64,000 nt of DNA from Amoebophrya sp. A120 (lineage: Eukaryota > Protista > Dinoflagellata): contig CAJINV010000017.1 of assembly GCA_905178155.1 (NCBI GenBank), forward strand, positions 1,686,139-1,750,138, written 5' to 3'. Below the pieces are notes generated by a model, which was given only the letters and a program-made list of their open reading frames with translations, had not been told where the DNA came from and did no database searches. Every line of letters begins with the position of its first letter. Position 1 is the first letter of the stretch. Position numbers and translations under genes: made by a program. Shown here piece by piece: positions 7,878 through 64,000 of this stretch.

Positions 7878-10800
7878 TCATCTTGCGCGTCCCGCGCCTC
7901 CTTTCCCACCACCCAGCAGCTGATTTGCGTCCGCAGGTGGCGGCCTCGCGAAATTTTCTTCAAAAAAGAAAAACGCGTCGAAAATGTCCATGTCTTCCGC
8001 CTCATCGCCGACAAACAGGAAATATGAAAGCGCTTCACAAACCCCCTGCTTACCTCCTTTTTTTTTTCGCTTCCACAAGACAGATTTCGCTTCCACAAGC
8101 CAGATGATTCCACGTCCTCTAGGCAGAAGAGCTGCTTGATGGGGTGCAGCATGTTGTGATGCAAACTTGGGCTAAAACTAAAGGAAAAAGGCAACGTCTC
8201 GAATTGTGTTGAAGTTGATATGATGCCTTAGCCTTTCATCGGATCTGCATGACAAATTAGGTGGAGGTAGGACACTAATCGTGCACTCTCATAGCGACCC
8301 GGCCGCCGGGGCCAGAAAGTTGAAGCAGGAAGACGGTAGCATGTTGTCGCCGGACAATCCCCACTTTTCCGCCCCGCCGGGGGCCTCCCACCGGGTACCG
8401 TGAATGACAAGTCCCTCGCCCGCGCCAACTCCGCGGCGACCGAACACGCTACGGAGCTGCCGGACCTGCGTCGCCACTTCCCAGCTGACGACTTTCTCGT
8501 ATTTCCACGAGTGTAGCTGCATCGCCTCGCCGAACGGCCCGATCACATCCTTGAACAGGAAGCGGTGCTTTTCCGGGAAAACCAAAAAGTCCCGAGGTTT
8601 TCGGTAGGCCAATTGCAGTTTCTCGTAGTCGAGGAGCACGCGCGGCTGCTTTTCTCGCAACTCCGCGGTTGCTTCCCCGGTGTCAGCGTAACGAAATTGG
8701 TCGCTGCTGTCGACCATCCACCAGCCACCGCTCCAGGACTTGCCCTCGGCGGTGTCCAAATTTTGCGTGGTGGTTTGCGGCTGTTCGCTTCGCCCGATGA
8801 TGGCGGCGGAAAGGAACCGGTACAGACTCTGTATCAAATGTAAAAATGTCTGGGTCTGGAAGATTCATGCTGTTTTTGCATGACACGGAAGGTCTGGCAT
8901 GGAAGCTCTAGCATCACAGGTTTCGAGAAGCTTCCGCAATGCCGAACCCGCATGAGAAATCCCCCACTTTGGTGACAGAAAGTGGGCAGCTTTTGCTACC
9001 TATGCATGAGAGATTTTTCTGTGTTCGAAAATGCGCATCACAAGTTAGGATCCTTCCAGACCCAGACATTTTTGCATTTGATACTCTGCGTGTCCGCGCA
9101 ACCGACTTTGAACTTGAACGGAGGGGACATTTTCAGGCCGTAATGCAGCGTCAATTCCTCGTCCGAGATCTTCAAGTGCTTGTCGATTTTGCCAGGAAGG
9201 CTCAACTTCCAATAGTGAATCTCGTCGTAGGGGATGCTTCGCCACCTGGACCGCGAGCCTTGGGATATGCACGAGAAAAAGTGCGTCAGTGTAAGTCTGT
9301 GATGCGAACAATAAACATGCAAGTAGAGAGATGCGTCTGTCATGCTGGATATGGATTAGAGAATGAATCAAGTCGAGTAGCGAGCGCGCGTTTTGACGTC
9401 CTATCTGCGCAGGACATGAAGAGGTTTTTGCTTTTATACCGGATAGATTTGAAATGCTGTTCCACCAAGTGACACTTACACACGTGTTTTCTTGGATATG
9501 CGAGGTGAGCTGTGTGGAGGAGAAAAATGTTGACGCGGTGTTGTCATAGTCACGATGCAGGATGCGGAAGCTGGTAAACATATGGAACCGCCAGGAGGCT
9601 CGAAATTAATGACAAGAGTGAACAAGAAAGTAAGGACTTGCAATGCCGATGCATGAAAGGCAGCCAGGCACAGAGTGCCTGTCCTGCAGGAGTTGCAGTA
9701 GGGTCAGAGTCAGAGATGGACGAGCAGCCTGTGAAAATAAAAAATGACAAAAAAAGGTGTCTTTGTTTCCCCAAACAGCATCAGAGATTGGATTTAATAG
9801 GAGCGTCCGAAATTTGTGATGCGCAGCCTCGAGATTCAAGTTGGGTTTCCGATTGGTATCATCTATCTTATGCACTCCAGCAAATTATTTCAACTTTCTT
9901 TGTAGTCCATTTCGAGCACCATGACGCATCCATAAAACAGCAAGATGTCGTGCCGGTTCTGTGCGGTGAAGCCGAAGTGAATCTTTTCACCGGGAAGAAA
10001 CAGGTGCAGCCCAGGATTGTTCTTGTCGTTCTCGCCTCCGCTCGGAGTCGATTCCGTTCCTTCCAAGGTTCGCGCCATCAGAAGCTGCTTGACGGTTTCC
10101 GGTATCAAATGCATATATGTCTGGGTCTGGATGAAGATTCTGAGATTTGTCATGCAGTTTTTCCAAGCTCCGCTAAGTCTGGAATGCAGGGCCTAGCATC
10201 GGAGGATCTGCAGTCGCTTACCCTTTGTGATGCCTGTTCTGCATGAGAAATGCCCTGTCAGCATGACCAGAAATGAGCACCTTTTGCAAGTCACGCAACA
10301 CAGATTTTTGTATGATCCGCAACATGCATCACAAGTTCGCATCCTTCCAGACCCAGACATATTTGCAATGCATATCCGGCTCCTCCTGGTAGTACTGGTT
10401 TGCCAACCACGACTATCGCAAGAAAAAAGTCGTGTTGCAGTTCCACATTGTGATGCTGCAGGACCGGCATGACAGACAACCTTTGTCATGCGCAAAATGC
10501 TTGCGGGCTTGGCTTCATTCATGTTTTCCCGTCTGAGCTCTGCATTGGAAGATTTCTCTGATATGCAAAAAGAGTTTGTAATGTATTTTTGAAGTACATC
10601 AAGTAGTTCTTACAAACAAGTGTGTAACGGTAAAACTTTTTCCCCGGGATAACGACACTCCGGACTGAAACCAGCTGCTCCCCTGTTCGCACACGTGCTC
10701 GTTTTCTTCCACAATGCTCCGCCAGGTTTTCGTATCTTCTTTTGGCGGGGCAACGGCGCCCTTCTTTTCGGATACCCGCGTGAGCCGGAAGGACAAGTAA

Positions 10801-13800
10801 GCGTGTACGGCGATATTGAGAGGAAAAATGCCCCCTCCCCATATTGAAAACGCATTCGTCTGAAAATTTGTGATGCAGATCTGAGGTCACAAATCCTCTG
10901 TGTCTTGCAAGAAGGCAAAGCCAGAGAGTCCGCCGCATAATGCCGGCGGTTTGTGATGCTGTTTGGCTTACAGAGCCGACGTCTGTCATGCTAGTCCCCT
11001 ACGTCAAAACCCCTCGACCCAGGCTTGGCATATGCCTGCAGTCCTCTCCAGCAAGACAGACCTGATTTGTGTACGCAAATCCAGCATCAGAAACTTTGTT
11101 TCGATATGGGGAGGGGGGATTTTTCCCTTTGATAGGCGAGCAAGGACTCACTGCCCCGAAAATCGACCATCACTTCTCTCAGCCCGTTGTTGAAATCCCA
11201 AGCTCTTTAATCGCAGGAAAAAAAGTGGATCGTGTCAGTCTAACGAGTGCAAGCGGACGCGGTGCTGGTCTACGTAAATCTAATTCTTAAGTTCATTTTT
11301 TCATATAATATTGTCCAGAATTACATGCCAGACTACACCCAGCACACGTATCATGTTGCCAACAAGAAAGAATGACGTATGAAAATGAGTGTCCCTTTGA
11401 GGCAACGGAAACGGATTTGATTTCACAGGCTAGATTGTACATGATGTTGACAGTGAAAGGTTTTTTTTTTTCAGCTGCATGACTGAGCATGCAGGGGACA
11501 CGAGAGTGAGACAAATCTTCTGAATGTGTAGGAAATTACTGCGATGTAGTTGTCAGATGATATCTTCTAAAGGAGCGCCAGCAGTTCCGACAGTAAGACT
11601 GACGCAATACTTCCTACTTGTCGGATATCCCGCCGCTCTGCACTCGTCAATATTCGTGCACCATCCAGCGACCGAATTTGCAAATTGCAGCATTTGTCCT
11701 TCACGTTCGCGCAATCCCAGTTCCTGCTTGCTAACCTGCGTGGCTTGCTGCTCGCGTTGCTGCGTCATCAGCGCCTGCGCCCTGGCGGACTCGGCCTGCT
11801 GATGTTGATGCAGTTCTTTCCGAGCGGCCTCATTTGTCCCGGTTTTTCTTGCCGTCTTGTCCCGATGTTGAACGAGATTTTCTTGTTGTTCTCGGTTGTT
11901 CATTGCGATCGTGTTGTCCAACTCCATGAAAGCGTTTCTCAGTGCTGGCGGTTGCTTATGAGAGTGCACAACTCCCCCTTCCCCACATTTGTATAGCATG
12001 AAGATGAACAGCAAAAATTATACAAACACCAGAACACGTGGAGGCTACGCATGACAAATTTGAGTACCTAATGGAGTATACTGTTTCCGTTTGGGCTCCT
12101 TCCGAAATTGGTCATGCAAACAGTGCTACAAGGCAACGACTGAATTTGGCATTTTGCATCACAAATGGGGGGGAATGGGATTTGTGCAATGTCATATTGC
12201 GAAAGAGCATGACGCAGCTCCCGATCCTCATCTTGTCCTTCATGAGCTGGCGACGTATTCGCTACTAGGCCTGTCTGATCAACATCTTCATCCTCGTTTT
12301 TCAGTCCGCCGAGTTGCAGATAGGAGTAGCTCTGTGAGCCCCCCTCCAGAACTTCGGCCACCGATGTGGATACTAAAGAAATCGGCGAAACAGAAGTCGG
12401 GGTTGCGGCCACGATGCTGTCGCCAGTGCGTGGCTCGACCTCCGACGACAGCGGAGAAGTAAGTCCAGCACGGGCTGAAGTTGACGAACTTCGGGAAGAC
12501 GTAGACATTGCGCCCGTCAGATGATGCTCCAACGCAAGATCTTCTGCGTCGTGGTCCTCCGATGGTCGCAGAGTGCTGCTTTTCACCACGACGCCTGCAG
12601 AAGTAGTTGGACTAGCGTGCTTCTGGTTCTTGGCTCCATCGTGGTCTACGACAGCATCATGTTCCACCTCCTTAACCTCGCTGAAAGAGAGGAACGAAGA
12701 AGACACAAAAGCACCCAACAGCTGCACACCCTCTCCAAGCAACTCGAGTCCCGCACCAACTTCCCCTCCCCCGACCCCGTCATGTTCTGGATCCGGAGGA
12801 GGAATGTAGACGCCCGGCACGTATGAAATGCAAAAGTGTCTGGGTCTGGAAGAATGCAAGATTTGTCATGCATATTTCTCATGACCCATGATGCCTGTAA
12901 TCCTTGACCTAGCATCGCAGACTTTTAGAGGGCTTCCTGATGCACCTTCCACATGAGAAATACCCTGTCCGTGTAGCAAAAACTGTACCCCTCTTGCTAG
13001 TCATGCAATACAAATTTTTTTAGAGTCCAAAAACAGCATGACAAGCTGCATTCTTCCAGACCCAGACATATTTGCACTTGATAGCACGTCGGTGGACACG
13101 AAGAGTTCGCCCTCGCTATCGTAAGGAAAAATCCCCCCTCCCAATATCGAGATGAAGTATCTGATGCTGGATTTCCGTACATAAATGCGCGCTGTCTTGC
13201 AGTAAGGCATCGCAGCCAGAAGATCCTCAGCCTAGGTAGGGGCTTTGGGTCTAGTTGTTTCGCACTACAAACGGCTGGCCCCTAGGCCCAACAGCATGCC
13301 AAATCGCTTCCATATTAATGGCGCGAAAGCCTCTGCGCTTGTCTTCTTGCAAGACAGGCGTGATGTATGGTCTCAAGTCAGCAACACAAATTTTCGGAAT
13401 CATACCGTTTCGATATAGGGAGAGGGGATTTTTCCTTTTGATACTCGCCCCAGGGCAACACCTTCTCCGTCGCCGCCTTTTCGCGCAGCGCGAAGGACTG
13501 AATGGCGTTGTAGCCGTATGCAAGAAAAAAACTGTGTTAGTGTAACTCTGTAAGTAATGCAGAACATGCAACAGGTTTACACCTGTCATGCCCCATAGCC
13601 ATGAAGTCCTCTTTTCAACATGTGTGTTTTTCTTACAAGCCACGTATGACAGGTTTTCTCTGTCATGTAGACCGAATTTCTGATGCTGTCAGCCAAAGAA
13701 AGTTAGGTTCACACGGTTTTTTTCTTGCACAAGTCGATGGAAATGTACTGCTCGTTCCCGAGAAACCCGCCCAGCAGGTTTCCAAAATCCACGAGCTTGT

Positions 13801-16508
13801 TGCGCTTGATTACCAGGCGTTTATTCGTGAAGGCGAACATCCCGGTAGCGGAGTCGAAGGCCATGTCCACCGTTTCGCCGGCGTCGGGCGTGAGGAAATT
13901 GTCCAGCATGTCCTGCACGATAGATTTGTCCCGGATTCGAATGCCGTTGTCCAACTGCAAAAGCCAGTCGAAAAAGCCCCCGCTCTATCCAGGAAAAAAC
14001 ACCCATCCACATCCAATTTCTTTGTCATGCAAAACATACATTCATAAAATTCTTATTCTGTGTCTGTCATGCAAAAAATTATATATGGGGATGCGATGAG
14101 TTTTTTTCTGTGGATACGCTCGCCTGCTCCGCACCAGCCCCTCCCGCTTCTCCGTCCACCAACGCCAGCAGCTTGTCGCCCATCTTGGCCGCGGGCGCGT
14201 TGCCCAGGACCCGCCAGGATAGGAGGTGCGTGACCAGCAAGGGGCTGGTGCCCACGCCCCAGAGCGTCTCGTAGCCAAAGGTGGTGCCACCTTCCCCGCC
14301 CCCTCGGATGTTCAGGTGAATGGTGCGCGGGCCGTGCGTATGCATTGCAAATACGTCTGGTGCGTTTAGAGTTGTGATACCGGACAAAAACAAGACCTGT
14401 CAATGTAGTGGATAAATGCATTGGCCGATTCCTGTTCGTTGTTCTCAAGGGCAATTTGTAGTTTACAACTCCAGACGCAGTTTATTTGCCTGTGATAGTG
14501 CGACCCGTCCCCCCGGCTTTCGTAGATTTTCGTGTGAATCACCACGGTACTGTCCCAGTCGAGAAAGGAGCCCGGCGTGTGAAAGGTCCAGGCGCGGACG
14601 GCGGAGTAGAGGTAGGAAATGTAGTTCGCCTTGCCGCCCGTGAGGTGCTTCTCGAGCAGGTCGGGGACGTCCTGCTTGAGAATCCGGTAATTGGTAAAGA
14701 TCACCGCGTCGCGAATGTTGGTATCCAGGTCCACCGCCCCGGCCTCCGACGCCAGCGCGAGTTCGACCCGCTCGTCGTGCAGCAGTACCTTTTTCTCCCG
14801 CAAAATCGCCTGCGTACACGCCGGGTCCACCTGTTTCATGCCCGCCTTCCAGAAGAACAACTGCGTCGTGCTCAGGATCCCGCCGTTCCCGTTGTCGTGG
14901 CCTTTTTGCTTGAAATTTTCCAAGTCACACGGCTCGTGCGCGGCGGCGAACCTCTTGCTGAACCCCGCGGGCTCGGGCAGGTGGAGCGAGTTGGAGGCGA
15001 GCAGCCGCCAGGACAGAAAGTGGTGCAGTTCGAAGGCTTGCTTCACGTCCACGGAAACGTTAATTTGCCGACTGTCAGTTTCCGTTTCCAGGGTGAACTT
15101 GGAGTCCAAATCCAGCCGCGTTCCCACCGGCTCGCTGCACCAGGAAAGAACCGCCGACCACCGCATGGCGCTAAATTTGGTCTGCGGCTGCTCCGTGCCG
15201 ACGGTGTCTTTCCAATAGTACGGCCACCCTTCTTTGACGTTGATGTGCAGGATCTGTATGCAATGCAAAAGCATCGTATTAGTATAATTGCATTACAGAT
15301 TTCCTCAGAATGACAAATGCAATTTGTAATGCTGTTCTACCTTAGGAAGAAGAGTTGCAATGCATATTTGCAATTAGTACGAGTACGATACTTTTGCACA
15401 GAGTAATCTGCTCGCTGGTCCAAAACATGACGTCCTGGCCCGCGGACTGCTTATGGGAGTGTCAGGATTGAAATCGACAAACTTGAAATAACTTGCATCG
15501 CGTAAAATCGATACCAGATGCAAGCCCAGTTTCCTCCAAGCGGTGCATGACAAATTTCGAGACCTTCGAAATCCATTTTGTCATGCTGTTTAGGGACAGA
15601 CGGCGTCTGTTGTCGTGCTGCTTTAGCAGCTCTATCGCAGACCCCAAACAGGCCGACAGTCGGCCTCACTTGGCATCCCTGCAAGAGAGGCGCTTCATGC
15701 CTATGCCTTGCAATTTATGCATGAGAAGTTATTTCATTTTCAACGTTGTCGATTTCAATCCTGACACCCCCATACTTCTCGAAAATGTAGTGCAGTTTTT
15801 CGCCCCGGTCAAGTAATTTCCGGTAGTTCTTCGGGCCTGGCTGCGGGTCGTCATCGCCCGCGCGGCGCGCCTGCATCACGAGGAAAAACTGCTCCACTGC
15901 TTCTTTCTTCTCTTTCATCTTGTCCTGTGGGACGAGATCCCAGATCAACCCAAAGAATTTTCCAGCGGAAGTCAGCACGGATCCACGCAGGTTGCGTTTC
16001 TGAACATTTTGCGTTGGATCGTAGTCGTACCAGAGTTTGCGAATATCACTGTTTGAATATTTAAATTCACCGTAGAGATGAATATGCATCATTCAGATTA
16101 ACATCATCAATCTACAACTACCTCCTGCTGTGCTTGAGAAGTCGCCTGCTTGTTTTCCACGGCCTCATCGAGTCGCCCGATTTCGTGCTGCAACGCGAAG
16201 GCGAAAATGTAAATGGTACTCGTCGTAGTGGGCGGAGTTCGAGTTGGAACAATTCTTGCGCCGTGGTTGACCATCAGCTCGTTGTTCTGCAGCTTTCCTA
16301 TCGTGCTCTTGAATCGGGAAGTAGTAGTAGGGGTGAAAAAACGGAAATGCTCTTCGAGGGGAACAAGGTCGGAAAACAAAAACGCGCCGAGAAAAGCTGC
16401 GGCACAAGACTTCATGGTGAATGTCCAGAAAGCGGCTGCGCACATTGACGAGACCGTGGTCTGCCCAAGGGCAAGGCTCGACTTTGAGCCGCGACTTGAT
16501 AACATCAT
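7878..16508 (-). CDS. Multi-exon protein (~1,400 aa) with about five tandem bacterial-type PH (bPH_1/DUF1696-like) repeats
   Basis: Exons join in frame after removing TIR elements (e.g. ADTQS|LYRF, LLF|TSFRIL, PWGE|GELFVSTDV|PGVY). Repeats such as LLHDERVELAL..IRDAVIFTNYRIL..YISYLYSAVRAW..PGSFLDWDS and LFLPGEKIHFGF..DILLFTSFRIL..SIPYDEIHYW..PG match the bPH_1 pattern. Junctions near 11.2 kb and 16.1 kb and the start codon are uncertain. Confidence 0.7.
8023..8293. mobile_element. Degenerate introner-like intron (family B-like end)
   Basis: Right end GTGCACTCTCATA matches the family B TIR. Flanks GGAAA/GCGAC match poorly, but removing element+5 nt gives AGSL|FVGDEAED in frame. Confidence 0.55.
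8832..9083. mobile_element. Introner, TIR family A
   Basis: TATCAAATGTAAAAATGTCTGGGTCTGGAAG...CTTCCAGACCCAGACATTTTTGCATTTGATA; direct repeat CTCTG/CTCTG; frame restored. Confidence 0.92.
9266..9498. mobile_element. Introner-like intron
   Basis: TATGCACGAGAAAAAG...TTTTCTTGGATA; direct repeat TGGGA/TGCGA; joins LTS|QGSRSRW. Confidence 0.75.
9581..9934. mobile_element. Introner-like intron
   Basis: TATGGAACCGCCAGGAGGCTCGAAAT...ATTTCGAGCACCATGACGCATCCATA; direct repeat AAACA/AAACA; joins LLF|TSFR. Confidence 0.82.
10103..10374. mobile_element. Introner, TIR family A
   Basis: TATCAAATGCATATATGTCTGGGTCTGG...CCAGACCCAGACATATTTGCAATGCATA; direct repeat TCCGG/TCCGG; joins QEEPE|TVKQ. Confidence 0.9.
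10414..10651. mobile_element. Introner-like intron
   Basis: TATCGCAAGAAAAAAGT...ACTTTTTCCCCGGGATA; direct repeat ACGAC/ACGAC; joins GVS|WLANQY. Confidence 0.82.
10814..11134. mobile_element. Introner, TIR family F
   Basis: TATTGAGAGGAAAAATGCCCCCTCCCCATATTGAAA...TTTCGATATGGGGAGGGGGGATTTTTCCCTTTGATA; direct repeat GGCGA/GGCGA; joins SLLA|VHAY. Confidence 0.9.
11208..11627. other. Probable intron, degenerate introner; boundaries approximate
   Basis: AT-rich gap between coding blocks with a weak inverted match (GTCAGTCT near both ends). No clear direct repeat, and the element+5 rule is off by one nt. Confidence 0.4.
11957..12196. mobile_element. Introner, TIR family B
   Basis: TATGAGAGTGCACAACTCCCCCTTCCCCACATTTGT...ACAAATGGGGGGGAATGGGATTTGTGCAATGTCATA; direct repeat TTGCT/TTGCG; joins ALSQ|PPAL. 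Confidence 0.87.
12822..13083. mobile_element. Introner, TIR family A
   Basis: TATGAAATGCAAAAGTGTCTGGGTCTGGAAG...CTTCCAGACCCAGACATATTTGCACTTGATA; direct repeat GCACG/GCACG; joins STDV|PGVY. Confidence 0.92.
13117..13443. mobile_element. Introner, TIR family F (opposite orientation to 10814..11134)
   Basis: TATCGTAAGGAAAAATCCCCCCTCCCAATATCGA...TCGATATAGGGAGAGGGGATTTTTCCTTTTGATA; direct repeat CTCGC/CTCGC; joins PWGE|GELF. Confidence 0.9.
13517..13731. mobile_element. Introner-like intron
   Basis: TATGCAAGAAAAAAACTGTGT...ACACGGTTTTTTTCTTGCACA; direct repeat AGCCG/AGTCG; joins YISI(D/G)|YNAIQSF. Confidence 0.85.
13986..14116. mobile_element. Introner, TIR family E
   Basis: TATCCAGGAAAAAAC...GTTTTTTTCTGTGGATA; direct repeat CGCTC/CGCTC; joins EQAS|GGFFDW. 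Confidence 0.85.
14339..14497. mobile_element. Introner-like intron
   Basis: TATGCATTGCAAATA...TATTTGCCTGTGATA; direct repeat GTGCG/GTGCG; joins DGSH|GPRT. Confidence 0.82.
15257..15405. mobile_element. Introner-like intron
   Basis: TATGCAATGCAAAAGCATCGTA...TACGATACTTTTGCACAGAGTA; direct repeat ATCTG/ATCTG; joins SEQI|LHIN. Confidence 0.82.
15452..15774. mobile_element. Introner, TIR family C
   Basis: TATGGGAGTGTCAGGATTGAAATCGACAA...TTGTCGATTTCAATCCTGACACCCCCATA; direct repeat CTGCT/CTTCT; joins IFE(K/Q)|SAGQ. Confidence 0.9.
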
Positions 16509-17305: not shown

Positions 17306-17346
17306 ATACGCCGCGGGTGCTCCTGTCCGAGAACAACGACAAAGAG
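17306..17346. repeat. 41-bp dispersed direct repeat, copy 1
   Basis: ATACGCCGCGGGTGCTCCTGTCCGAGAACAACGACAAAGAG. Confidence 0.9.
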
Positions 17347-17933
17347 ATCTTTTGCATCCAAGATTTCTTGGCACAGATTTGAATGCTGTTTAGCCCTTCG
17401 GAGTAGATTTGTCATGCGAAATAGCTTGATTGTCTGGCTCTGGCGGCTTGAGGTAGTTTTGCGCATGACACATCCATGGAACTACATTTGAGAAGGTAAC
17501 CGATTTGAGAAGCTGTACTTATCCCATACAGCAGGAACAGGTCCTGGTGTCACCTGCCGTCCCATCACCGAGAGGTCTTGCGGCTGCGCTGCAGCGGACG
17601 AAGACGAGAGATGAACATGGCCGCTTGTTGTCCCGGCGTGCTGCAACGTCGTGCTCGAGTCAACAACACCTTGTTGTTGATTTGATACCAAGGTCGTGCG
17701 ACGCGTTTCCCTTGCGGTCATTAGCCGCTCGCCAACGCGGGCGAAGGAGCTAGCCGAACTTTTGCTGTAAGACGGCCCCTATGGACTGCGCGGGCGGAAA
17801 GTGGCGGTGCCGTGGACAGCGAAGATCCGGGTAGAGCCCCTTGATGGCCGCTGGTAGAAGAGCCAGCCCCCAGTTGTAGGGGGCCCCGGTGGTGCTGACC
17901 CCCCGTTCTGTACCCCTCCTTGCGGTTAGCCCT

Positions 17934-18023
17934 CGCCAGTTCGTACCCCCTCCGGCCTCTCTCCTCCGTCTCCGTCGCCAGTTCGTACCCCCTCCGCCCC
18001 CTCTCCTCCGTCTCCGTCGCCAG
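17934..18023. repeat. 42-bp tandem duplication
   Basis: TCGCCAGTTCGTACCCCCTCCG(G/C)C..CTCTCCTCCGTCTCCG x2; reads LATETEERGRRGYE x2 on the minus strand. Confidence 0.85.
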
Positions 18024-18639
18024 ATTGTCCATGTCCTTGTCCATGTCGTATGCAGATTTCGTAGATTTTGTAGAATTGTAGAACGCGACGAGGACGTCGC
18101 GAAGTGCGAGCATGACGGTTATGAAGAAGTTGCGCGGGCGAAGGGTGGAAACGTTGCATCGAAGACGATGTTGATAAGACTAAGTACGGAAGTCGAAATC
18201 ACGACGCGACGGCAGAAGCGCAGCAGGGGCACAGGTGTTTCTGTTTTTTGTTTTGTAGCATCCGATCAGATTTGTTTTTCAACCGCTGATGGAAAAAAAA
18301 ATTTGCACATGCAGACGAATCGCTTGTAAAAATCATTTTCATTGTGAACGGATGCTACAAAACAAAAAACAAAACGTCAGGTGGTTATGTGTTGAACGAG
18401 GACAAGCGGTTGAGGTGTGGGGTCGCAATGCAAAATGCAAGAGCACGGCGTTACATCAAGAAAAAAAAGCATGAACTTCAATAAATTGCTGAACGTGCTG
18501 CGCAGACCGAGCTTTTGCCTTCATGAAAAAGATAAGTAGTTGCAACGCAGCACGCAGAAATATCGAGAAACAGAGCGAAGCAATACACTTGCAAGAAGTA
18601 AACCGCGAGCGCCAAAGATGGCAAACAAACGCTTTGACC

Positions 18640-18680
18640 ATACGCCGCGGGTGCTCCTGTCCGAGAACAACGATAAAGAG
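18640..18680. repeat. 41-bp dispersed direct repeat, copy 2 (1 mismatch)
   Basis: ATACGCCGCGGGTGCTCCTGTCCGAGAACAACGATAAAGAG. Confidence 0.9.
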
Positions 18681-19468: not shown

Positions 19469-19595
19469 GGTCGCTTGTCACGTTGCGAAATGCCCCATGC
19501 GGCGCAGGTCACGTTGCGAAAATAATCTCTCATCAGACTAGATCACGCCACCTGTCCGACTAGATCACGCGAAAATGATCTCTCATCAGACCACT

Positions 19596-19636
19596 ATACG
19601 CCGCGGGTGCTCCTGTCCGAGAACAACGACAAAGAG
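19596..19636. repeat. 41-bp dispersed direct repeat, copy 3
   Basis: Identical to copy 1; preceded by short duplications (GTCACGTTGCGAAA x2, GACTAGATCACGC x2, ATCTCTCATCAGAC x2) at ~19477-19591. Confidence 0.9.
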
Positions 19637-47700: not shown

Positions 47701-50700
47701 CGGACCCCTTCGTGCAAAAGTACTCGCCGGATGGCTCGGGCCCGACGATGATCACGTAGGTGTAGGTCCAGCCGTTCCAACAAACCCTCTGCAACCCGGA
47801 ATCGGTCGCGGTTACCTGGTACAGCCAACGAGTTTGGTCCGTGTTGGTCATCCGCAACCCATAGGGTTCCACCGCGGTGACGTCCATGTCGCAGAGGGAA
47901 ACATTCACGTTCTGCGGGTGCAGAACCGCACCAACGTTGGCCGGATCCGGGTAACTGTTGGATTGCACGTACAGCACTCCGAAGTCTAACTTCATCGGGT
48001 GGCCCATGAGAACCCCGGTGAGCGTGTAGTTGTAGGGCCCTTGGACGGGGAGATTATCCCAGAAGCTCCACCAGTTCCCGTCGGTGAGTTGCCAGCACAC
48101 CTGGTAGTAAGACCCGATCTCGAGAATTTGGTTTTCGAAAATGTAGTCCGTCACGTTGATTGATTTCGCGTCTTCCAAAGAGGAAAAGAACAACCGTAGC
48201 GGCCCGCGCTCCGGATCCTCGGTCTTGTACAGGAAAAAATCATATACGTCCACGTAGGGGAGGGAGGTGTTTTGGGTCATGTTGGTTCCGTTGGACGAAC
48301 TTGTGGTAGTCGCGGTTGCGGTGCTCGAGCTGGAAGAGGATGACGAGCCTGCTGCTCCAGAGCCTCCTGCTGATGTTCCGTTCGTGCCGTTCGGGTCAAA
48401 AACCTGATCCTCCTCCTCTATCCGGTAGTAAAACATCCTTTTCACCGCCGTGTTGCAATCGAGTTTTTGGTAGTCCGCGTGTAGACCCAGGTAGTCGTAC
48501 AGGATGAACATCAATTTTGGATTGGCTCCCACCGCGTAGGACCCGGTCAATGGTTGCGATAGTGCATCGCTGTCCGTCGGGCCGACCATGCCGCCACCCG
48601 TGGTCACGGACACAGAATTTCCGCTCGTCAAGGCCTTGCTCGGCACAACAACCGGCGCTGACAAGTCCGAAATGTCCAGACTCTTCGTCATGTTTGACAA
48701 CGAATACCGGCCGTCCATCCTATGGCCCTTGACGTTCAAAAACACCCCCGGCGGGCCGACGTAGGCATCCGGGACCTGCCCAATCTGTAAATCCGCAGCG
48801 GCGATTGCGTTGCTGTCCGCGTAGGTTCCGCCACCTAACGACAAGTACTTCGTCATGCCCTCGAAGTACACCAAATTCGGCCCTGTGACGTGCAAGGAAT
48901 CAAAAACCGTCCACCCGATGTCGTTGTTCGGAATCCGGTTGTAGGGCCCTTCCAGAGTGAAGTAGCAAAACTCAAACGGCCTTCCGCGGTCTAAATACAC
49001 CCCCTCCCAGGTCAGCATCGAGCTGGAAGTCGTCGCCGCGTCGGACTGCCGGTAAAAAAGCTTCAAGTCCGGGTATCGGGTCAAAACTGGGTCGTTCGTG
49101 AAGGTATTCGTGTCGTGGCAGTCGTTCGCTAAGAGTAAGGTATCCGAATAGCTGGTCGGCGTGAAGATGTTGCTGCCGCAGCAGAAGTAGTCCCAAAGGT
49201 GGAAGGTAACGACGATGTCGAACTTCTCGTGTGCGAAGAGCGTCACGGCTTCGTCCGCTATTGTCGCGTTGCTCGGGTTGGACATGACAAACGGGAAATT
49301 CCCGCTTTGCACCGTCAAATCGTCCATCAGCAACTTCTTCTGTTCCTCCAGACTCAAACTCGCGGTGTCCAGAAACCCCTCCGGGTCTGCCGTGGCAACG
49401 ACGGTAGTACTCCCGTTGGACGCAGCCGCTGCGCTTGCTGCGGAAGAGTACCGAGAGGGGAAGATGTAGTAAACCTTCTTCGGCCCGCGGATGTCGATTT
49501 TGAACAGCGGCCAGGAGCTCGGGTAGTAGATGCCGGGACCTTCTGCAACAACTGTTGCGTTCCCTCCTGTACTGTTTGCTGTCCCATTGCCGTCCGCATC
49601 CTCGGTCGCCGGGCTGCTCGCCGATGATGTTGAGGAGTTTGTTCCACCTCCTGCAGCTCCGCTGCTCACCGCAGTCTCCTCCCCCCCAGAGTAGTACGGG
49701 TCCCGCTGGAGCCCGAGCCCTGTGCTCCTAGTTTTCTCAAAGGGGTTTTCCCAGCAAATATGGTACTCCCCCGCTAGGTGGATGTCCACGTTTTTGAACT
49801 TCAGCGTCTTGTGATCTGAGGTACTGGCGTCGTAGTACTTGGAAATGAACAACCGTCCGAGTATCCGTGTGTTGGTATCGTCTAGTGGGTCCCGGGTGAA
49901 CGCCTCCTCCGATTCTTCGAACCTCGTTGCCTGCACCGGCTGGTCATCGTCCGTGGCGTTGGCGATGCGGCAACTGAAAGAACTGTGCTCGATCCAGACA
50001 TTTTTCACCACGTGGCTCTCGTTCAGACCGTATCCGTAGACTTCTAAATGGAAGTCCTCCGTAATGCGCGGCTTCTCCGTGCCGTAGTTCCCGAAGGGTT
50101 TGATCGCCCCCCCGTTCACCCCGTTCAACGTGACATACCGGGCGACGTAGTTCTCGCCGGACCAACCCTCGACGCAGAGCGCATATTCCCCCGCGGAGGT
50201 CGAGGAATTCAGTCGGTAGTTGATCTGTGCCTTGCAAAAGTATCGCACTCCTATCAATTGCCTTTACGCGTGACAAATCTCTTTCTAAACCTGAAACAGC
50301 AATACAAAGTCCACTTCTCTTCTACTTGCCGAAATTTGTGATGCTATTTGTACTAGTACGTTACTTTTGCCATGAATATGATCAGAGAGTGAACCAAAGT
50401 GTAGTTCTGGTTTTCCAAGTAAGTCCTTCCCAGGTTCGCGGTTTGAAACCGCGCGTCCCCGAAAATTGTGTCGTTCAAAACGCTGTCAATAGCGGCGCTC
50501 CCAAACGCGTTTGCGACGTCCTCAGGAGAAGATAAACTCCCATTATATCCATGCGCTCCGTCTTGGTTCGTGGGGTCGCAAAATCCAAACACGCCGCTTG
50601 TGTACCAGTTCGACGCCGCAGCGGAGTTCACGGACGGACACCGGGTTTCGGATTCCGTCAGTAAACTCCGCGGGACTAGTATCAAGAAGAAAGAAGGCCC

Positions 50701-53700
50701 CCCCTCGACGCCATAATGTTGAAATCGAAACACGGACAACTTCCTGGATGATTTGCCCTCTTGCAAGAGAGGCACGACTTGTGACGACCACACTTCACCA
50801 GCATCACAAATTTTCGGCAGCTGCATCCCGCTTCATCAATATGGGCGGGAGGGGGGCGAACAACTTTTTCCTTGCGATAACCAGGGTGACCCGATCCTCG
50901 TAAATGTTCGTTCCCTGCAGCAGCAGGTCGTCGACAATGCACTGGTTGATCAAGGAATCTCCCGTCTTCAAATTCCCAAAAGTCACGTTCGAAGCGTCTG
51001 CCCCGCCGTAAATGATCTGGGTTGGGAACAAAGCTTCCGTATTGTTGCAGGTGGAGGAGCCGGCAGACCCGATATTTGTTCCATCGTAGTACAAGTGCAT
51101 CCCCGCATCCTCGGAGAGCGCGTAGTTCTTCCTCTGCAGCTCGTACGTGTGGTCTGCGTCACCTAGAAAGTCGTCGCTGATCAAGACGTGCTGCGTGTAG
51201 GTGCCGTTCTCGTTGAAGGTAGATTTGAATTGGTCGTCGAGGAATCGTAACCCCTCAAAGTGTAAATACCCCCGCTCCTTTTTGAAATCGGTCACCTCGC
51301 TGCAGTCGTTTGTGGCGTCAGGTACACAGTTACAAATCGTGTAGATCCCCCCGGCAACAAGTTGCTGCTTGTCGTCCACTGTATCGTACCCCAAGCCCTG
51401 GTAGTCCCACTGCGCACACTTCGACGGGCCGACAAGCAAAGGGGACTGTCCGAACATCTATCCCCGTCTCAACTGTTGCATTCTCAACTGTCAAACGAAT
51501 TTCAATTTGTGATGCTAAACCCACCAGAGCCACAAACTATTAAATGGCTTTGCGATGCAACAATGGCAAAAGGAAAAGTGAAAGACCTTGTGCGTCTTGC
51601 ATCACAGATTTGGCACAGATCAGCAGCCTGTATGGCTCTTCGAGAATTTCGATGTGTCATGCAAAGCAGCTTGATCGTATCGATTCTGATTGTAATTTTG
51701 CATGAGAAATGATTTTGTAACAGTTGAGAATGTAACATTTGAGAATCCCATAACGTCATCTGCTCGGTCGTGTTCAGATACGCACCGGATTTTTGCTTCG
51801 GAAACATCCCGCAGGTCTGCTTCCCGTCTAGCAGCAGCACCAACCCCTGGTCGGGCTGCGTCCGGTTTTGGAATTCCTTCAGATCGTACTCCCCGCCCAG
51901 TTCCTTGCCGAAAGTCCACGACCGAAGTAGGCAGTAAGGCGCGGTGGCGAGACAGGTTTGCACTTCGATGCTAGGCCCGGTGGTGTTGAACCGAAGAACC
52001 ACTTCGTACTCCCGCCTAGTGCTGCTTGCCAGGTGCGTGTTCAGCTTGTAGCAGACCTCGTAGTAGTTTTGTCTTTCCCGGGTGGTCGACCTGGGGAGCG
52101 CCACGTTCTTCCACAAAACGTGCGAGCTGTTGGATGCGGAAATTTGCGCGTGGGTCAAGAGACTTGTCAGGTAGCTGTCGATGTCGTGACAGTCCTGCGT
52201 AATCAGAAATTCGTCGTCCTTCGTTGCCGTGTGTGCGTAATCCCAGTAGTGCATCGTGATTTCAATGTCGATTTTGGTGTCTAGACCCGCGTTGATGGAT
52301 TGCACAGAATTCACGTTCGGGTAATTGCTCGCCGCAGGGACGACACTTCCTGTCGGCGCAAACACATCCACCCGCATCGGGCCCCGGATGTCGATTTTCG
52401 TCAGCTCCCAGGCATCGTAGCCCGTTCTGTCCTTCGTGCTGTTGAAGTAGTTGTACGGGTTTTCCCAGCAGATTCTGTACTCCCCAGCAAAGTTCGCCGT
52501 GATGTATGCAATAGAAATTTCATGCAGGAGCTGCACACGTATTTACAAAATGCGTCACGCATAAGGTCACCGACTTCTTCTAGCACGCCACTTCTTGTCA
52601 TACTGAATAGGATTTTTGAAGGAAAGTCAAAGTGTTACCGTGCACAAAAAGCTGCATTTGTTTTTGTACGTACGTGTACGGCATCAATAAAATCAATCTA
52701 CTGTTGATAGGATGTCTGTAAAGACCAGAAGTGTCCCAGAACTGCTTTCCGCTTGGTAGTAGTCCGTCAAGTACTTCCTGCCGAGAATTTTTTCCCTCGC
52801 CGGGTCTGTACCGTCTATCGCCAATTCGTCCGTCGCGGTGTTAAATTTTCCACCTGCCGTCGCATTCGACTCGCAAGTGACCGGCAACGTCACTGACTCC
52901 AGCCACAAATTGTTGGTAGCAAACGCGTCCGTCAATCCGTAGCCGGTCACCTCCACCCGAAACGTTTCCCGCATCCTCGGCTTGTGCTCCGCCGGGATTA
53001 TTGAAGCGTTGTTCACACCGTGAATGTCCAAATGCCGCACCGCAAAATCCACCCCGGTCTGCAGTCCGGCGACGCACAAACTGTACTCCCCCGCCTCTGT
53101 GTCCGCCGGAATGTTGACGGGCAACAGTTGGTGGACGACCGTGAAATTTTGGTTCAGCATCCACGCGCCCCCGTAGACCGAGTCGTCCCAATCGGACGTG
53201 TTGAACGACCACGGGGTGGCAAGTTGCGTCCCGTTGGCGGCAAGGGAAAGCGCTAGGGAATTCACCGTTGAATCAAACGCGGCGCCGACACCGGTTTCGG
53301 CTGCGCAGTACCCGTACGTGTCAGCGGAATAGTACGTCGCTGGTGTTGTGCTTACTGCTGGGTACGCGCCACTACTACACCTGGAATTGTTGTGTGTCGT
53401 GCTGTTCCGCAAGACCAAGCGGAGCGAATTCACGTCGAGATTGGTCCCCTGCAAGATCAGATCGTCCACCCGGCAGTCGTTGACAAACTCAGTGTTGTCC
53501 TCTACTAGCGACGCGGTGTTTTCGCAATGCGTCTTCGACGCGGATCCGACCTCGTTATTGGTGTACACGCCGGTGAACGCGTAGTTGTTGCTGTTGATGT
53601 CTGTGGTTAACAGACCACCGCCGGTCAACGTATAGGAGGTACTGTCGACAGCTGTTGTAGTTCCTGTAGTTGTGTCGTTTGCAGAAGAAGAACTTGAGTC

Positions 53701-56700
53701 CGCTGGTGTTAAAAACCGCGGCCCTTCGAAGTGTAGGTATCCCCGGAACTCTTTGAAATCATTCAACGCTCCGCAACTCCCGACTTGGCAGTTGCAAATT
53801 GTGTAGATGCTTCCCGCGTTCACCATACCGGTGTCGTTTTCGTTCCCGTACCCCCCGGACAAATAAGAACTTTCCAAATCCAGCACCGTGCAGGGCCTCG
53901 GGCCCACCACCATCGCGTCGACGTTCGTTGTCGTCAGAGCGGCACTGTCAAATTGCCCACAGGTTTGCTGCCCGGGAGCGATTACCCACAAGCCGCGGTC
54001 TTTCGTGCTGCCAAAAGCGGATAAGCCGGAAACGGTGTACACTGCCTTTTCGAAGGACAGTTGGTGAAAAACACACTTCGCGTCCTCAAAGCCACACGTC
54101 TGGATGTTCAACTGCGAGCCGGCCAAGGCGCTGGAATCGGCGATATCGATTAAAACGGTGGCGACTTGAACCGAGGACGTGACGGTCAAGTTAGCCGAAG
54201 AAAGAAACGTGGTCACGGTGCTGTCCTGAAGGATTAAATTTGTGATGCTGGCGGACATGGTGGCCGAGGACAAACTGTCGTTCGTCGCGGCTTGGAAACT
54301 GGTCAAAATCGAGTTCGCAGAGGCTTGGGGTGCGATGATCGTGAAAACAGTGGTTGCAGATGCCGTTGTTTGCGCCAGTTGCCGCCTTGTTGCAGAAGGT
54401 GGTGGATCTTGTTGCTTTCCTTTTTTGCCTTTGATGTCTTTCCCCTTTTTATTCATCTTCCCGGAGGTGCCTTTGTGTTCTTGAGATAATTGCTGAAGAT
54501 CTCCAACTTCTTCTTCTTCTCCCAACAGTCTCCTCGAGATTCCGCTCCACGTGAAAGAGAACGTCGTCGAAACCCCATTTTCGCCACTGCTGCTGGTGCA
54601 ATTCCCCACGTTGCTGAAGGTTCCTGCTTCTATCAACGGTGCACAGGCGACTTCCTTCACGGCCACTTCCAGCGCATTCTTCAAAGCGACCTTCTCCCCG
54701 GCGGAGAGAGAATCCGGGTAATTCAACGAATTCGAAAACGTCGACTCCGCCTTGGCCGTGGTAAACGCCACGTTGGTGATGTTGAAACTGGCCAGCGTTG
54801 TGAAGACCCCGTGCTGCAGTTTGTAGCAAAGCTGGTATTCGGTAACGGAAGCGGTTTCCGCGAGCCCTTTATCGATCGACACTTGACTCCAAACAACCTC
54901 CTGGATCCGGTCGCTGTAGGGGTTGTTCACGTTCGTGGACGCGGACGTGTTTGTTAACACTTGCACCCCGCCAGCCGCGGTGAATACATAGGGCTGGACG
55001 CCCCCGGGGTAAGCGCAGTCGGGTGTGATGAGAAATTCGTCCGTGGTACTGTCGTAAGCGAAGAAAGAAAGCCGGATATCCAACAAATTTGGGTTCAGTG
55101 CGTTCGCCGCGGTGAGCAACAGCGAGCTCGACACATCAAAGTTGTCATGCGCAGAGGTCGTGGATGAGCTCGAACTACTCCCCGCGGGGGCCCCGCTCGA
55201 CGGCGTGAAAAAGTCCACCCGTAGCGGCCCGCGCACTTCGAACTCTGTGAGTTGAAACGTCTGCTCCACTGGGTTAGAAAAGCTGGACAGGAAACACAGG
55301 TGGTACGTGCCCGCGAAGGGGACGGCTAAGTCGGTGTACTGCAGGACTGTGTCGGTCGAGGCGGCGGTGTTGATGAAATCACTTGTCAAATAAACCCGCC
55401 CCAGAACGTCCTGTTTCAAGCTGTCGACCGGGTTCAAATACAGCTTCGAACTGTTGAACTGGGCCAGGTCCGCAGTGCTGTTAAAGTTGTTCGCAAAGTA
55501 CATTTCGTTGTTCATGCAGCTTTGGTTCCCGGACTCGATCCAAAACCTGCCGTCGCGGGAAAATTCGGTGATGTTTAAACCGTTGCCCAGAATTTGAATG
55601 CTGAACTTTTCCGTGATCTTCGGGCTGCTCGGCCCGTTCGGCACGGTTGTCGTGTACTGCATACTCGCGCTGTTCACTCCGTGAATATCGAAGTTGGAGA
55701 TAACGTACTGCTGACCGCTGAACCCGGGGAGGCAAAGCGCGTACTTCCCGCCATTATGAAATGCAAATATGTCTGGGTCTGGAAGAATGCAAGCTTTGTG
55801 ATGCAGGTTTTCCATGACCCATGAGGTCTGGAATGTGAGACCTGGCATGACAGATTCTTTGAGGTCTCTATCATGCCTTTCCTGCGTGAGAAACTCCCTC
55901 TCAACTTGGTCAAAAGCGGACAGCTTTTGGCACTCACGCAACACAGATTTTTGATTTTGCATCATTCAGATTTAGCATGACAAGTTCTAATCTTCCAGAC
56001 CCAGAGGACATTTTTGCATTTGATACCCATTCAAAGTCGACGATACTTGGTATGTGAAGCGGACCCCATCGTTCACCGTGTACTCCAAATCCGAAAGAAA
56101 ATAGGCCGCGCCGGAGTAACTGCTTGTCGGATTCACCACCGCAGCGTCAAACACGTTCACGTGCTGTGGGATCATCCAGAAGGAGGGGGCCAGGGAGGAG
56201 GTCACTTGGGTGCCGAAGGGGGGCAGACGGAGGAAATGGGGCGTATCGTCCGGGCACGTATCGGAATTCTGGAGCGCGGAGACCGTGTAGAGCGTGCCAT
56301 TGTAATTCGTTGTCGCAACTTGTTGCGCAAGCGTGCCGCCGGAGCTGCTGACCGCGGTGTTTGCGCAAATCGCATTGTCGTAGTGGAGACCAGACGCCGT
56401 TTCGCGGTTGACCACCGTCATGGTAGGGCTGTCCGCCGTGAGATTTGCGGTCTGCAGGTTCGTTCCCTGAATCTCAACACTGAAGGAACAGGCCAGGGAA
56501 CCGGACCTCTATGCACAGTAATTAATTTACCGTACAACTACCCGTACAAATTCTGCGCCGGCTTCTGCGGGACAAATGTTAGTTACGCTTCGACCCTCGT
56601 CTGCAGACGCATGAGAAGTGTTTCTGATTCTACTTTAAGATGGCGGAAAAATTTAAGTATTGTCATGCATTTTGTAGGTGGTGTACGGAAAATTTGTAAA

Positions 56701-59700
56701 TTGCATAGCCGCTGTGACCAGGCGCCGTCACTGAACTCGAAGAATCTGGAGGGCTGCGGCATGGTACAGAGGTTCGTGGGGATTGCCTGAAAAGAGGAAG
56801 AGGAGGTGAAAGCTAGACCACTACTTGGCAGCGCCCGATTCACCACCCCTGTTGTGCTGCTACCACCCTCGTACGTGGAAAGCGCCCCTGGGATTCCGGT
56901 TCCTGAAGAGGAGAACCGCGGCCCCTCGACGTGAACGTACCCTTTCGTCACCGAAAAGAAGTCGCTGCGTCCTGTGGAAAAACGTCCCCGCTCCAGAGTC
57001 AGCATGGGAATGCTGCTGCGGAAATCAACAAGCTTTGGCTGTTGCGTATGACAAGATCAGAGGGCTTGCAGTGTAATCGGGTATAGCTAGCGCAGCCGCC
57101 TCTTCTTCATACTACATCGAGCATCCTATTCTCATGCTGGAGTCACAAACTGCCAGACAGCACTAGAGAATGCTCCTCTTCCTCATGGGACGACGCAGGG
57201 CAAACATTTGAGGCTTGCGGATTTGCATGACAAGTCTGGGGTGCTGGGGACGTTTTTTTTACACAGGATACGCTGCTCGTCAGACTCTTCGTCGTTTTCG
57301 TTTCCGGGCTGCAAATGGTGAAGATACTCCCCACCGGAATGCGGTTTGCCCGTTTCAGGTAAAAAACCCGGTCCGTTGCTTCCTGCGTGCTCGCGCCGAT
57401 TTGCGTGTAGACCCGGCAGCGAGCAGAAGTGTCAGTCGTCAAAAAGCTGTAGTCGAAGCCGAGGCAGTTGGCCGTGCTCTCACACATGGCGGCGCAGGCA
57501 GTGACGGCTGGTGTTACAGTGGTTTTCCTTCTAGTTTTTCTTTCCCCGGCGATGAATGAAACATGATTTTATTGAAATCATGTTCATAGGCACGCAGAGG
57601 CAGACGCGTGGTCGACGTTCATTATCATTTCATACTATTACTAGACCTATTCCTGAAAAAATAAAAAGCAACAAAAAGAAAAAAGTCATTTACACGTCGC
57701 CGGATCTGCTCTGGCGCAGATCCACCCGTTCTCCACAATTTGGTCTGTGCACCGGACGTGCTCCAAGTACCCTCGTTGCGCCACAAACGGCATATAGTCA
57801 TGGTTCGCCGCCGTTCTTCCGCCGCCGATCGCCACGGCCGGCCAATCGTTGGCCGCGACGGTCGACCCATAGACCTTGTGGGAAGGCGTCGCCGTGAAAC
57901 CCGTCAAGTCATTGCACGATTTTTTCCCGACGACTAACGGGTAGGGAAAGTAGGTGTTTGTTACCGCTGAAGTATTCATTGTCGCACAATCCACAACTCC
58001 GTCGAAGAGCTTGATCAGAGCAGAATCCGGCGAGGAGGAGGAGAAAACGTCGTCTTCTACTGCGCTAGAAGTTGCACTGGAAATACTGCCCGTCGTCTGT
58101 TTTGCGGTGTAGAAATCTTTCTCGACCGCTAGGTCCCGCAAAACACACGCTTCCACAAACCCCGGCGTCTGATCGCCGGCGACGCAGGTGATGATTTCCA
58201 ACCCGGCTTGCTGTCCCGTCAGCTATCCTATGTAAACACGTCGTCCCGACCACAAAGTCATAGTGGGGATCTCGCAACACAAACTCAGCAGCCTGGGGAG
58301 TCACGCGTGACAAGCTTCTCTTCGTAGTGTAGTGCAGTTTAGCAATGACAGCCACATCAGAAAGCCATCTCCTTTATGCTGATTTTTACAGCATTACAAA
58401 TTCCGAAACACGTTTGAAAATTTCTCTCATATTGATGGGCATGTGCAGCACAATTCTCCCTGTAGCTGCACATCAGCGTGACAACTCTGAGGTGGGAACT
58501 TTTTTACACAGGATATCAGCGTGAAATTCCCGATCTGCTCGAACGTCCCGTTTGTCGCCAGCGAATTGCGCCTATGGAAGTGTCAGGATCGAAATTGGAA
58601 AAGTCGAAAGAATTTGCAATGCATAAAGTCGATGCCTCCAGTTGGGCCTGCAGTTGCCTCCAATGGGCGCATGACAAATTTTCCTGGCCTCTGAAGCAAG
58701 TCTGTCATGCTGTTTCGGGCAAGACGAGGACCCCCCCTGTCATGCTAGCCTGCAGCCCATCAATTCTTGCTCATGACCAGCATTACAATCTGCCTCCCTA
58801 CTTGTGTCCTCTGCAATGGGAGTCCGTCTTTGCGTCGCATAATTTTATGCATGGCAAATTATTTCAACTTTGTCGATTTTGAACCTGACACATCCATATC
58901 GCCAGCAGATTTCGTAACTCCGCTCCCCCCTCGCCAGCTTCACGTTTGCGAAGCTGATCGTCGTGGTGTTTTCCGCCAGTTGCTGGCCCGTCTGAGCGAC
59001 CACCGTCGCATCCGCCTGGCTGGTCAGGATGCCGCCTCGCGGGTGCAAGTAGGATTCCACGTTGGAGCAGTCGTTGGCGATCAGAATCTCGTCACCATAA
59101 GTTGCTGTTGACGAACTGTCCCACCCGACAAAGTTGATGTTCAGTGTGAAGGAGGACGCGGCTGGGAAGGACAAAGTAGGGGTAGTACTAGGAGAAGCAG
59201 CACCGGAATATGATGCGACGGACGCAGGAGGAACAGCGGCGTCAAATTGAAGTGAAATCCCCTGTGGGCCACGGATGTCGAATGTTAGCAGAGATTCCAC
59301 GGTGGTAACGTTCGGGAGTGAAGAGGTAGATGAACTGGACGAAGTGCCAGTACTGCTGCTAGCACCTCCTCTTGTGCTGTTCTGCGGGTTGAATTGGGTC
59401 ACCTTGATTTCAAACCCGTACAACTGCAGTCCCTCCAACGTGGATGTTGTTGATGGTGCTCCATCTTGCTGCGCCGGCTTGAAAGCGAAGAAGTTCCGGG
59501 GGCCCGCGTTTGCAAGAGAACCCGGTACCGCGATCCAGGGGGAATATTTTCTCGGCTCAGAGCCTGAAACATTAAACGCCTCAAACGGAACGAGAATCGG
59601 GTCACCGAAGGCAATTGACGCTGCTGCGGTCGTCTCAGGGGTTGAAGTAGTTGCGGAACTACTAGCATTCATCCCGTCCTCCGTTTCATTTGACACGTTG

Positions 59701-63923: not shown

Positions 63924-64000
63924 GCTCTGTATTTTACTGGTCTCTCATCTCCAGCATCCTCGCGCTTGTACGTGGCCTCACGGGCTTTTTGTTTTTTTTT

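Follow-up and report, generated by a model that had tools for sequence, protein, structure and literature searches.

The introner elements of the dinoflagellate Amoebophrya sp. A120 have been described by their ends. They possess inverted repeats that begin with TAT, continue through about seven variable bases and reach an A-run, they are flanked by direct repeats of 3-5 nt, they measure about 240 nt and they are dense in co-oriented genes (Farhat et al., 2021, PMC7789003). Most A120 families are entered by Gozashti et al. (2025, PMC12130899) as terminal inverted repeat (TIR) DNA of unknown superfamily, among the 56 of 58 A120 rows covered here. One of them, fam38, is recorded there with '5-bp TSD, TA/TA termini' (TSD, target-site duplication) and an integrase-like open reading frame (ORF). 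The present analysis concerns a 64-kb stretch of the A120 genome (contig CAJINV010000017.1, positions 1,686,139 to 1,750,138; hereafter the window), which contains 32 curated elements of 131-354 bp with TAT..ATA inverted repeats. An initial annotation of the window had proposed that one short motif, here called the box, recurs inside introner families that are otherwise unrelated.

As far as can be judged from sequence, the window elements are of a known kind. They share with the introners of PMC7789003 the TAT ends, the A-run, the direct repeats and the organization into repeated families that interrupt coding sequence. Their lengths are similar to those of the published A120 families (106-321 bp in the A120 rows of PMC12130899), and fam38, when compared by description only, is alike in TSD size and termini. 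What appears to be new is a shared box with a 16/32-bp layout that is phased from the element ends. In contrast, the introner text of PMC7789003 gives terminal motifs only and mentions no internal box or spacing rule, and no internal motif is noted in the A120 rows and passages of PMC12130899. Neither the box nor its lattice was found in the literature searched by topic and by exact strings; the strings were matched as whole words, which would miss them inside longer sequences, and figures and Roy et al. (2023, Curr Biol) lay outside the scope of the search. The box is the new part, and its spacing at 16 and 32 bp goes beyond what the initial annotation had read.

A box shared by dissimilar families, and its spacing

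The box was matched exactly as TTGT[ACG]ATGC on both strands, with the direction > given to copies in which TTGT..TGC is read on the plus strand. The whole window holds 48 such matches, 30 on the plus strand and 18 on the minus strand; both orientations occur, as had been claimed. They comprise TTGTCATGC (14 plus, 11 minus), TTGTGATGC (13 and 5) and TTGTAATGC (3 and 2); TTGTTATGC has a count of 0. Inside the curated elements (7,952 bp) lie 44 of the 48, a density of 5.5/kb. Scarcity in exons is confirmed by only three matches in 44,505 bp of reconstructed coding DNA (0.07/kb), and the remaining 11,543 bp contain one, at 17409. This last box falls outside curated elements and coding DNA because 17340..17528 is apparently the right half of a family-6 element, as a by-eye comparison with the family-6 consensus suggests (boxes 17413> and 17467<). 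The motif is therefore not equally frequent in other DNA, from which canonical introns are not cleanly separable where that DNA is non-coding. Dinucleotide shuffles of the window elements yield a mean of 0.54 exact boxes and a maximum of 3 in 500 shuffles, against the 44 observed. These shuffles, together with permuted controls that are near zero, rule out a composition artefact as the source of the box.

At the level of single elements, 25 of the 32 contain an exact box and 31 contain one with at most one mismatch. All of the motif sites cited beforehand were found within 1 base (10147, 10326, 10868, 12049, 12156, 15545, 15578 and 58669). The 'about nine' variants that had been counted in 38124..38375 are slightly fewer: five are exact, and a weight matrix used to score weaker boxes at two thresholds gives seven at score 8 and eight at score 5. 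The core of the proposed consensus, TTGTSATGC, is present, but the fuller family-weighted form is AAW-TTGT[CGA][AT]TGC.

A larger sample was drawn from the JACKZZ01 contigs, from which 143 loci were retrieved by a family-0 TIR pattern; family sizes are biased because of this choice. After 12 loci had been dropped as overlaps and three trimmed, 131 loci (668,646 bp) were kept, cited below by L numbers. The element caller was blind to the box and needed TAT at one end at least. It recovered 23 of the 32 window elements with no extras, and on reversed sequence it made 16 calls versus 224, a control that is not a proper null. It found 480 further elements, a few of which may be counted twice owing to an exact internal duplication in L053. 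The elements of these loci resemble most window elements, at up to 96% identity, whereas the masked loci have no long match to the window. The total of 512 elements falls into 46 clusters, among them 13 families with at least four members (numbered 0-12). An exact TTGT[ACG]ATGC occurs in 449 of the 478 family members and a box with at most one mismatch in all 478, as well as in 30 of the 34 unclustered elements. The top shared 8-mer is TGTCATGC; in 12 of the 13 families, 30% or more of the members have it. Box density in the related loci reaches 8.17/kb for called elements and 7.94/kb for element-like DNA, as opposed to 0.06/kb for coding DNA and 0.22/kb for other non-coding DNA, and permuted-box controls are near zero in every one of these classes.

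How dissimilar are the families that share the box? Their ends are alike. All 26 consensus ends of the 13 families start with TAT, A stands at position 13 in 24 of them and at position 14 in 23, and an A-run covers positions 11-15 in most. (The alignments took 60 of 205 members of family 0 and 60 of 63 of family 1.) With boxes masked, 72 of 78 family pairs have no interior similarity; families 3 and 7 (z 8.5) and 4 and 5 (z 5.2) can be aligned, and four more pairs reach z 3.1-3.3. The claim of recurrence in otherwise dissimilar families and singletons thus holds, and one alignable ancestral interior does not explain the motif, but 'unrelated' is too strong for families that share TAT ends and an A-run and include two pairs with alignable interiors.

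Spacing was counted with one unit per cluster (46 units). Same-direction boxes at 31-33 bp number 39 pairs, versus a null mean of 5.5 and a null maximum of 14 in 2000. Such a pair is seen in 12 of the 13 family consensuses, in 23 of the 46 units and in 14 of the 32 window elements. The modes are 31 (19 pairs), 32 (13) and 33 bp (7), and the mean of 31.7 bp fits three turns of B-DNA. Boxes in opposite directions cluster at 15-17 bp (31 pairs) and at 47-49 bp (18 pairs); family 4 is exceptional in having same-direction gaps of 49 as well. A family consensus has 2-8 boxes, whose number, order and direction vary by family. Measured from the tip, the first inward box stands in most cases at 36-37 or 46-48 bp, distances one helical turn apart, and the positions of inward boxes relative to the ends have a period of about 10-10.5 bp (Rayleigh p 5e-5 across the 13 consensuses, 4e-3 across 33 single units). 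Two simpler accounts of the layout were rejected. Tandem duplication fails as the source of the pairs since the DNA that follows paired boxes is not duplicated (spacer identity just 0.35), nor are spacers common to families (0.33). A rule of 36 at one end and 46 at the other, like 12/23, fails since most families are symmetric.

Outside the sampled families, pairs of boxes 32-33 bp apart were also seen in non-coding DNA at L015:3295-3327, L021:3383-3415, L022:5947-5979 and L045:4652-4685. These could be unsampled families, decayed elements or host use of the box.

What may read the boxes

The initial annotation had offered two explanations, a common site for one trans factor (splicing factor, transposase or chromatin protein) or complementary blocks that zip the intron into a hairpin. 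The top shared 8-mer, the conservation within families and the fixed spacing with dissimilar spacers favour a site for a trans factor, and the options that act on DNA, a transposase or a chromatin protein, fit best. The boxes are probably a helically phased array of double-stranded-DNA sites, putatively for the mobilising machinery. One protein would bind them cooperatively on one helix face near each end; it might be part of an integrase-type DDE transposase acting in trans, namely its DNA-binding domain, or a host partner of that enzyme that bends DNA. Once bound, it would help to assemble and pair the element ends, with the common TAT tip as the cleavage signal. A common box would allow the outer inverted repeats to diverge into many families served by one enzyme, and copies that lose their boxes would stop multiplying. 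Removal from RNA would rest on the terminal hairpin and the target duplication, not on the box.

Conservation bears on when selection acts. Conserved columns make up 188 of 222 in box cores versus 256 of 560 in the other interior, and the cores are the more conserved in all 13 families, although barely in family 12. Rare variants occur in conserved box columns at 0.86 of the conserved-interior rate (family-stratified), and in the TIRs at 0.92. This near-equal rate leans towards selection during propagation; against this stand the depletion of private changes given below and the redundancy among boxes, which could mask selection by the host.

The 5-bp TSD, the TA tips and random targets suggest that an integrase-type DDE enzyme would be the mover. 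The TSD, which was among the criteria of curation, is perfect in 18 of the 32 window elements and has one mismatch (4/5) in 10. A paralog at L006 provides an empty site with a single copy of the 5-bp target, and the target-site profile is flat, with no preference for a target sequence. Several described groups resemble the elements in part, as far as the consulted portions of the sources describe them. IS3EU and GingerRoot have TA..TA termini and little target preference, but their TSD is 6 bp (PMC10045372, PMC6839031). TDD-4/5 (Ginger2/TDD) have a 5-bp TSD, whereas Ginger1 and Ginger2 end in TGTNR and not in TAT (PMC2836005). IS481EU has similar tips, TNT..AYA, with dissimilar TSDs of about 4, 15 or 25 bp. 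Since the window elements lack both a 6-bp TSD and TGT ends, no superfamily is assigned to them. The word 'subterminal' does not appear in PMC10045372, PMC6839031 or PMC2836005. A likeness in layout is provided by Tn7-like/CAST ends, each of which, in the part of PMC10201428 that treats them, carries several short TnsB sites at helical-pitch spacing, with an arrangement that differs between the two ends, and at which a host bending factor (IHF) can participate. The window elements likewise have multiple conserved short sites near their ends, spaced by the helical pitch. The likeness is an analogy for how an array may work and not a sign of membership; Tn7-like/CAST elements, unlike these, are bacterial, targeted and autonomous, and are not introns. 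The hAT and CACTA elements, with their subterminal repeats, offer another analogy.

Several observations weigh against sites for a mobilising enzyme. No transposase was found by Pfam among 13 window ORFs and 128 of 220 related-locus ORFs (141 in total, from about 0.7 Mb sampled), the 220 being candidates with non-host codon use and the 128 the longer ones, and none is reported in A120 in the passages of Farhat et al. (PMC7789003) consulted. Outward boxes are weakly periodic or not periodic, with no period in single units, and the later peaks of the end phasing partly follow from the 32-bp pairing. Indels within pairs (0.14 vs 0.19, p 0.10) are not significantly rarer. The elements that the weight matrix scores also served as its training set. 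Other non-coding DNA shows a small box excess, some of it as 32-bp pairs, with visible decayed elements among it. Family 0, unlike the other families, has an orientation bias (41 sense : 73 antisense, p 0.0035, uncorrected with 13 families tested). When six copies of each of nine families were folded as RNA, seven had interiors with better folding than their block shuffles gave (z -2.3 to -8.4; family 4, z -1.0). Finally, box cores are depleted of private changes, those that set a copy apart from its three nearest neighbours, at a ratio of 0.37-0.50, which would follow from host-level selection too.

The long TIR elements that were found mostly hold secondary inserts or cargo, and the scanned cargo ORFs gave no Pfam match. 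Viral contigs gave 0 matches to a three-box pattern, to the family-0 TIR and to a two-box pattern, the three-box pattern being strict (it matched 7 of the 143 loci).

The phased boxes might instead be read in the gene by a host DNA-binding or chromatin protein that marks the insert for co-transcriptional removal, replacing the splice-site consensus and the undetected U1 snRNA. This is unlikely, but strand independence and helical phasing would be expected from it just as much. It would suit the published introns of this kind, for which the consulted text of PMC7789003 reports no splice consensus and no detected U1. A box with at most one mismatch is kept in every one of the family members, private changes are depleted in the cores, and the short gaps that separate coding segments keep a low box excess (10,583 bp with 6 exact boxes). 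Against it, some of these gaps visibly hold decayed elements, and in box cores rare variants show hardly any depletion, at the rate given above. Copies with a mismatched TSD have the same box divergence as the others (0.107 vs 0.108), a comparison with little power because the classes are equally diverged elsewhere too. The two roles could also be combined. One DNA-binding protein would then read the 16/32-bp lattice genome-wide, assembling elements for transposition and flagging them in chromatin for excision from nascent RNA without splice consensus or U1. We hold this to be rather improbable.

That the boxes are relics without function, left over from a single ancestral interior, or that recombination between families spread them, is improbable. 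The TAT tips common to families would suit such an origin, as would the family pairs that still align when masked (3-7, 4-5 and the four weaker ones). One GC-rich cargo, about 830 bp long, was also seen in two different TIR settings, at L016:505-1608 in an element with its own TIRs and at L076:11772-12919 in a family-4 element, suggesting that interiors are swapped between TIR families. However, a relic would leave unexplained why most masked pairs have no interior similarity, why number, order and direction of boxes are family-specific and why conservation in every family is higher in the cores than elsewhere in the interior, if barely so in family 12.

On a further reading the boxes are complementary to one another, and by pairing they would close the intron RNA like a zipper into a long hairpin, lengthening the terminal stem. 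Predicted pairing at boxes exceeds that of other interior in all nine families folded (just 0.60 vs 0.59 in family 4), box-with-box pairing is 0.3-0.6 in eight of nine, and box layouts are mirror images in families 3, 7 and 12. Nevertheless, box-with-box pairing in family 4 is 0.07, its boxes being almost all one-way (184 forward : 14 reverse). The outer left and right boxes vary without covariation: they are concordant in 47 of 178 family-0 copies versus 80.6 when shuffled, mostly mismatched in family 5 (2 of 14 concordant) and only marginally in excess in family 3 (33 of 38 vs 31.3, p 0.038). Moreover, a zipper needs complementarity and not an identical 9-mer in every family, and it leaves the 31-33 bp same-direction spacing unexplained. 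Thus the earlier zipper claim survives in part, since the folding predictions indicate that a zipper can form in some families, but as the common reason for the box it is improbable.

The strand of the host gene, which was assigned for 306 of the 512 elements, speaks to signals read in RNA. Elements of family 4 are inserted 12 sense : 15 antisense to the host gene in spite of their one-way boxes. Family 8, with boxes 0:19, is inserted 3 sense : 5 antisense, and family 2 is inserted 11 sense : 16 antisense. Over all stranded elements the boxes number 706 versus 630 by transcript sense. One-way families that insert both ways, together with the missing left-right covariation, disfavour an RNA signal as well as a general zipper. 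A single-stranded RNA signal for a splicing factor or a guide/snRNA is highly improbable: one sense of the box does contain UGCAUG, which we take to be the RBFOX hexamer, and family 0 is biased in orientation, but the G and A variants of the box break that hexamer, one-way families insert both ways and 49 of the 306 stranded elements have boxes of a single sense (28 one way, 21 the other).

The window elements and their host frames

If each element is removed with 5 nt, minus-strand frames of at least 300 aa become continuous across 28 of the 32 elements. Removal lengths in the same frame class as +5 cross 24-26 of 30 elements, versus 15-17 of 30 for the other classes, and removal of the element plus 6 nt does not restore the frames. 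We infer from this restoration of frames only that the elements would be spliced out as introns. A host frame of 450 aa on the minus strand (7881..11206) is continuous across seven elements once each is removed with 5 nt, and a second, of 763 aa (12203..16092, minus), crosses seven more and has a PH-like Pfam match (PF08000) in one exon. Four long frames of 3518, 3497, 3496 and 1876 aa (22997..63944, minus) are continuous across 14 elements in all. The first three are consecutive and of near-equal length (22997-57568), and their exon-length pieces gave a weak YHYH Pfam match only. A homologue search with one host exon found none, and the window had no Rfam family.

Family 0 is represented at 8832..9083 (TSD CTCTG; same-direction pairs 8882/8915, 33 bp, and 9008/9039, 31 bp), 10103..10374 (TCCGG; eight boxes, pairs 10151/10183, 32 bp, and 10299/10330, 31 bp), 12822..13083 (GCACG; pair 13009/13040, 31 bp), 38124..38375 (GCTCC; seven boxes, pair 38167/38198, 31 bp), 38817..39092 (GCCCC; pair 39015/39047, 32 bp) and 55755..56025 (TSD 4/5; five boxes). 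Members of family 2 lie at 9266..9498 (4/5; four boxes), 10414..10651 (ACGAC; five boxes, including the opposite pair 10471/10487, 16 bp) and 13517..13731 (4/5; five boxes). Family 3 shows its pairs clearly, with 10872/10904, 10955/10987 and 11055/11088 in 10814..11134 (GGCGA), and 13266/13298 and 13353/13385, 32 bp each, in 13117..13443 (CTCGC). The one-way layout of family 4 is seen at 38434..38712 (GAGGA; six of seven boxes in one direction, pairs 38548/38581 and 38630/38661) and 58224..58515 (TCAGC; five of five, pairs 58278/58309 and 58449/58480, 31 bp each), and the family has a third member with two boxes at 56968..57270 (CGCTG).

Each family-1 element of the window has a pair at 31 bp: 15257..15405 (ATCTG; 15328/15359), 21626..21782 (TGTTG; 21744/21775, the second box in the TIR tip), 32722..32894 (AAAAC; 32808/32839) and 50226..50378 (TGATC; 50272/50303). 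In this family (15257-15405, 21626-21782) the tip of the TIR is also scored as a box, which points outward and is separated from the next one by 31 bp; this is a hint that related domains may read both tip and box.

The TSD is 4/5 in both members of family 5, 11957..12196 (four boxes) and 32465..32685 (32500>, 32516<, 32548<, 32596>, 32649<), in both of family 7, 15452..15774 (four boxes) and 58573..58898 (six boxes), and in the family-6 element 51459..51752 (five boxes). Family 8 is present at 13986..14116 (CGCTC), with two boxes in the same direction. The singletons are 8023..8293 (no clear TSD; boxes centred at 8036<, 8079<, 8158> and 8251<), 9581..9934 (AAACA; four boxes), 14339..14497 (GTGCG; weak boxes only), 50680..50879 (4/5; two boxes), 52505..52709 (decayed, 4/5; weak boxes) and 56510..56707 (3/5; three boxes). 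Two element calls, at 3513 and 20843, are doubtful, and both are without a weight-matrix box.

The window also contains three copies of a repeat of about 40 nt (17309-17349, 18639-18681 and 19594-19637). Its first copy adjoins the broken family-6 element, and ORFs near the copies have no Pfam match. The related loci contain secondary inserts, 100-700 bp long, whose flanking direct repeats of 8-19 bp take in part of a box, and one of these inserts is poly(A)-tailed (L044:571-1051, L045:3862-4492, L066:5794-6297, L066:18195-18462, L066:18504-19006 and L069:10001-10972). Breakpoints coincide with boxes in 6 of 8 cases versus 3.4 expected (P ~0.05), a crude estimate since the automatic repeat finder mis-picked some cases; boxes may be hot spots of breakage or insertion. 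At L012:1604-2035 a family-7 element carries a nested TAT..ATA element, small and palindromic, which sits just ahead of the first family-7 box. The ORFs with non-host codon use include C-5 cytosine DNA methylase and RNA polymerase Rpb1 domains (L013:2635-4584; L069:3479-4327).

Implications for Amoebophrya introners

How introners move, and how they are spliced with no consensus and U1 undetected, are stated as open questions in the passages of PMC7789003 consulted. The box layout makes both directly testable. A common phased internal site unites introner families that had been treated as separate, and its lattice is a sequence signature by which autonomous partners and decayed copies could be spotted. 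A double-stranded box pair is also a defined bait, with spacing controls built in, for purifying the protein responsible. If a single protein did serve both transposition and excision, introns would be defined at the level of DNA, and this would explain how the genome tolerates tens of thousands of introns that lack splice signals and lie in either orientation.

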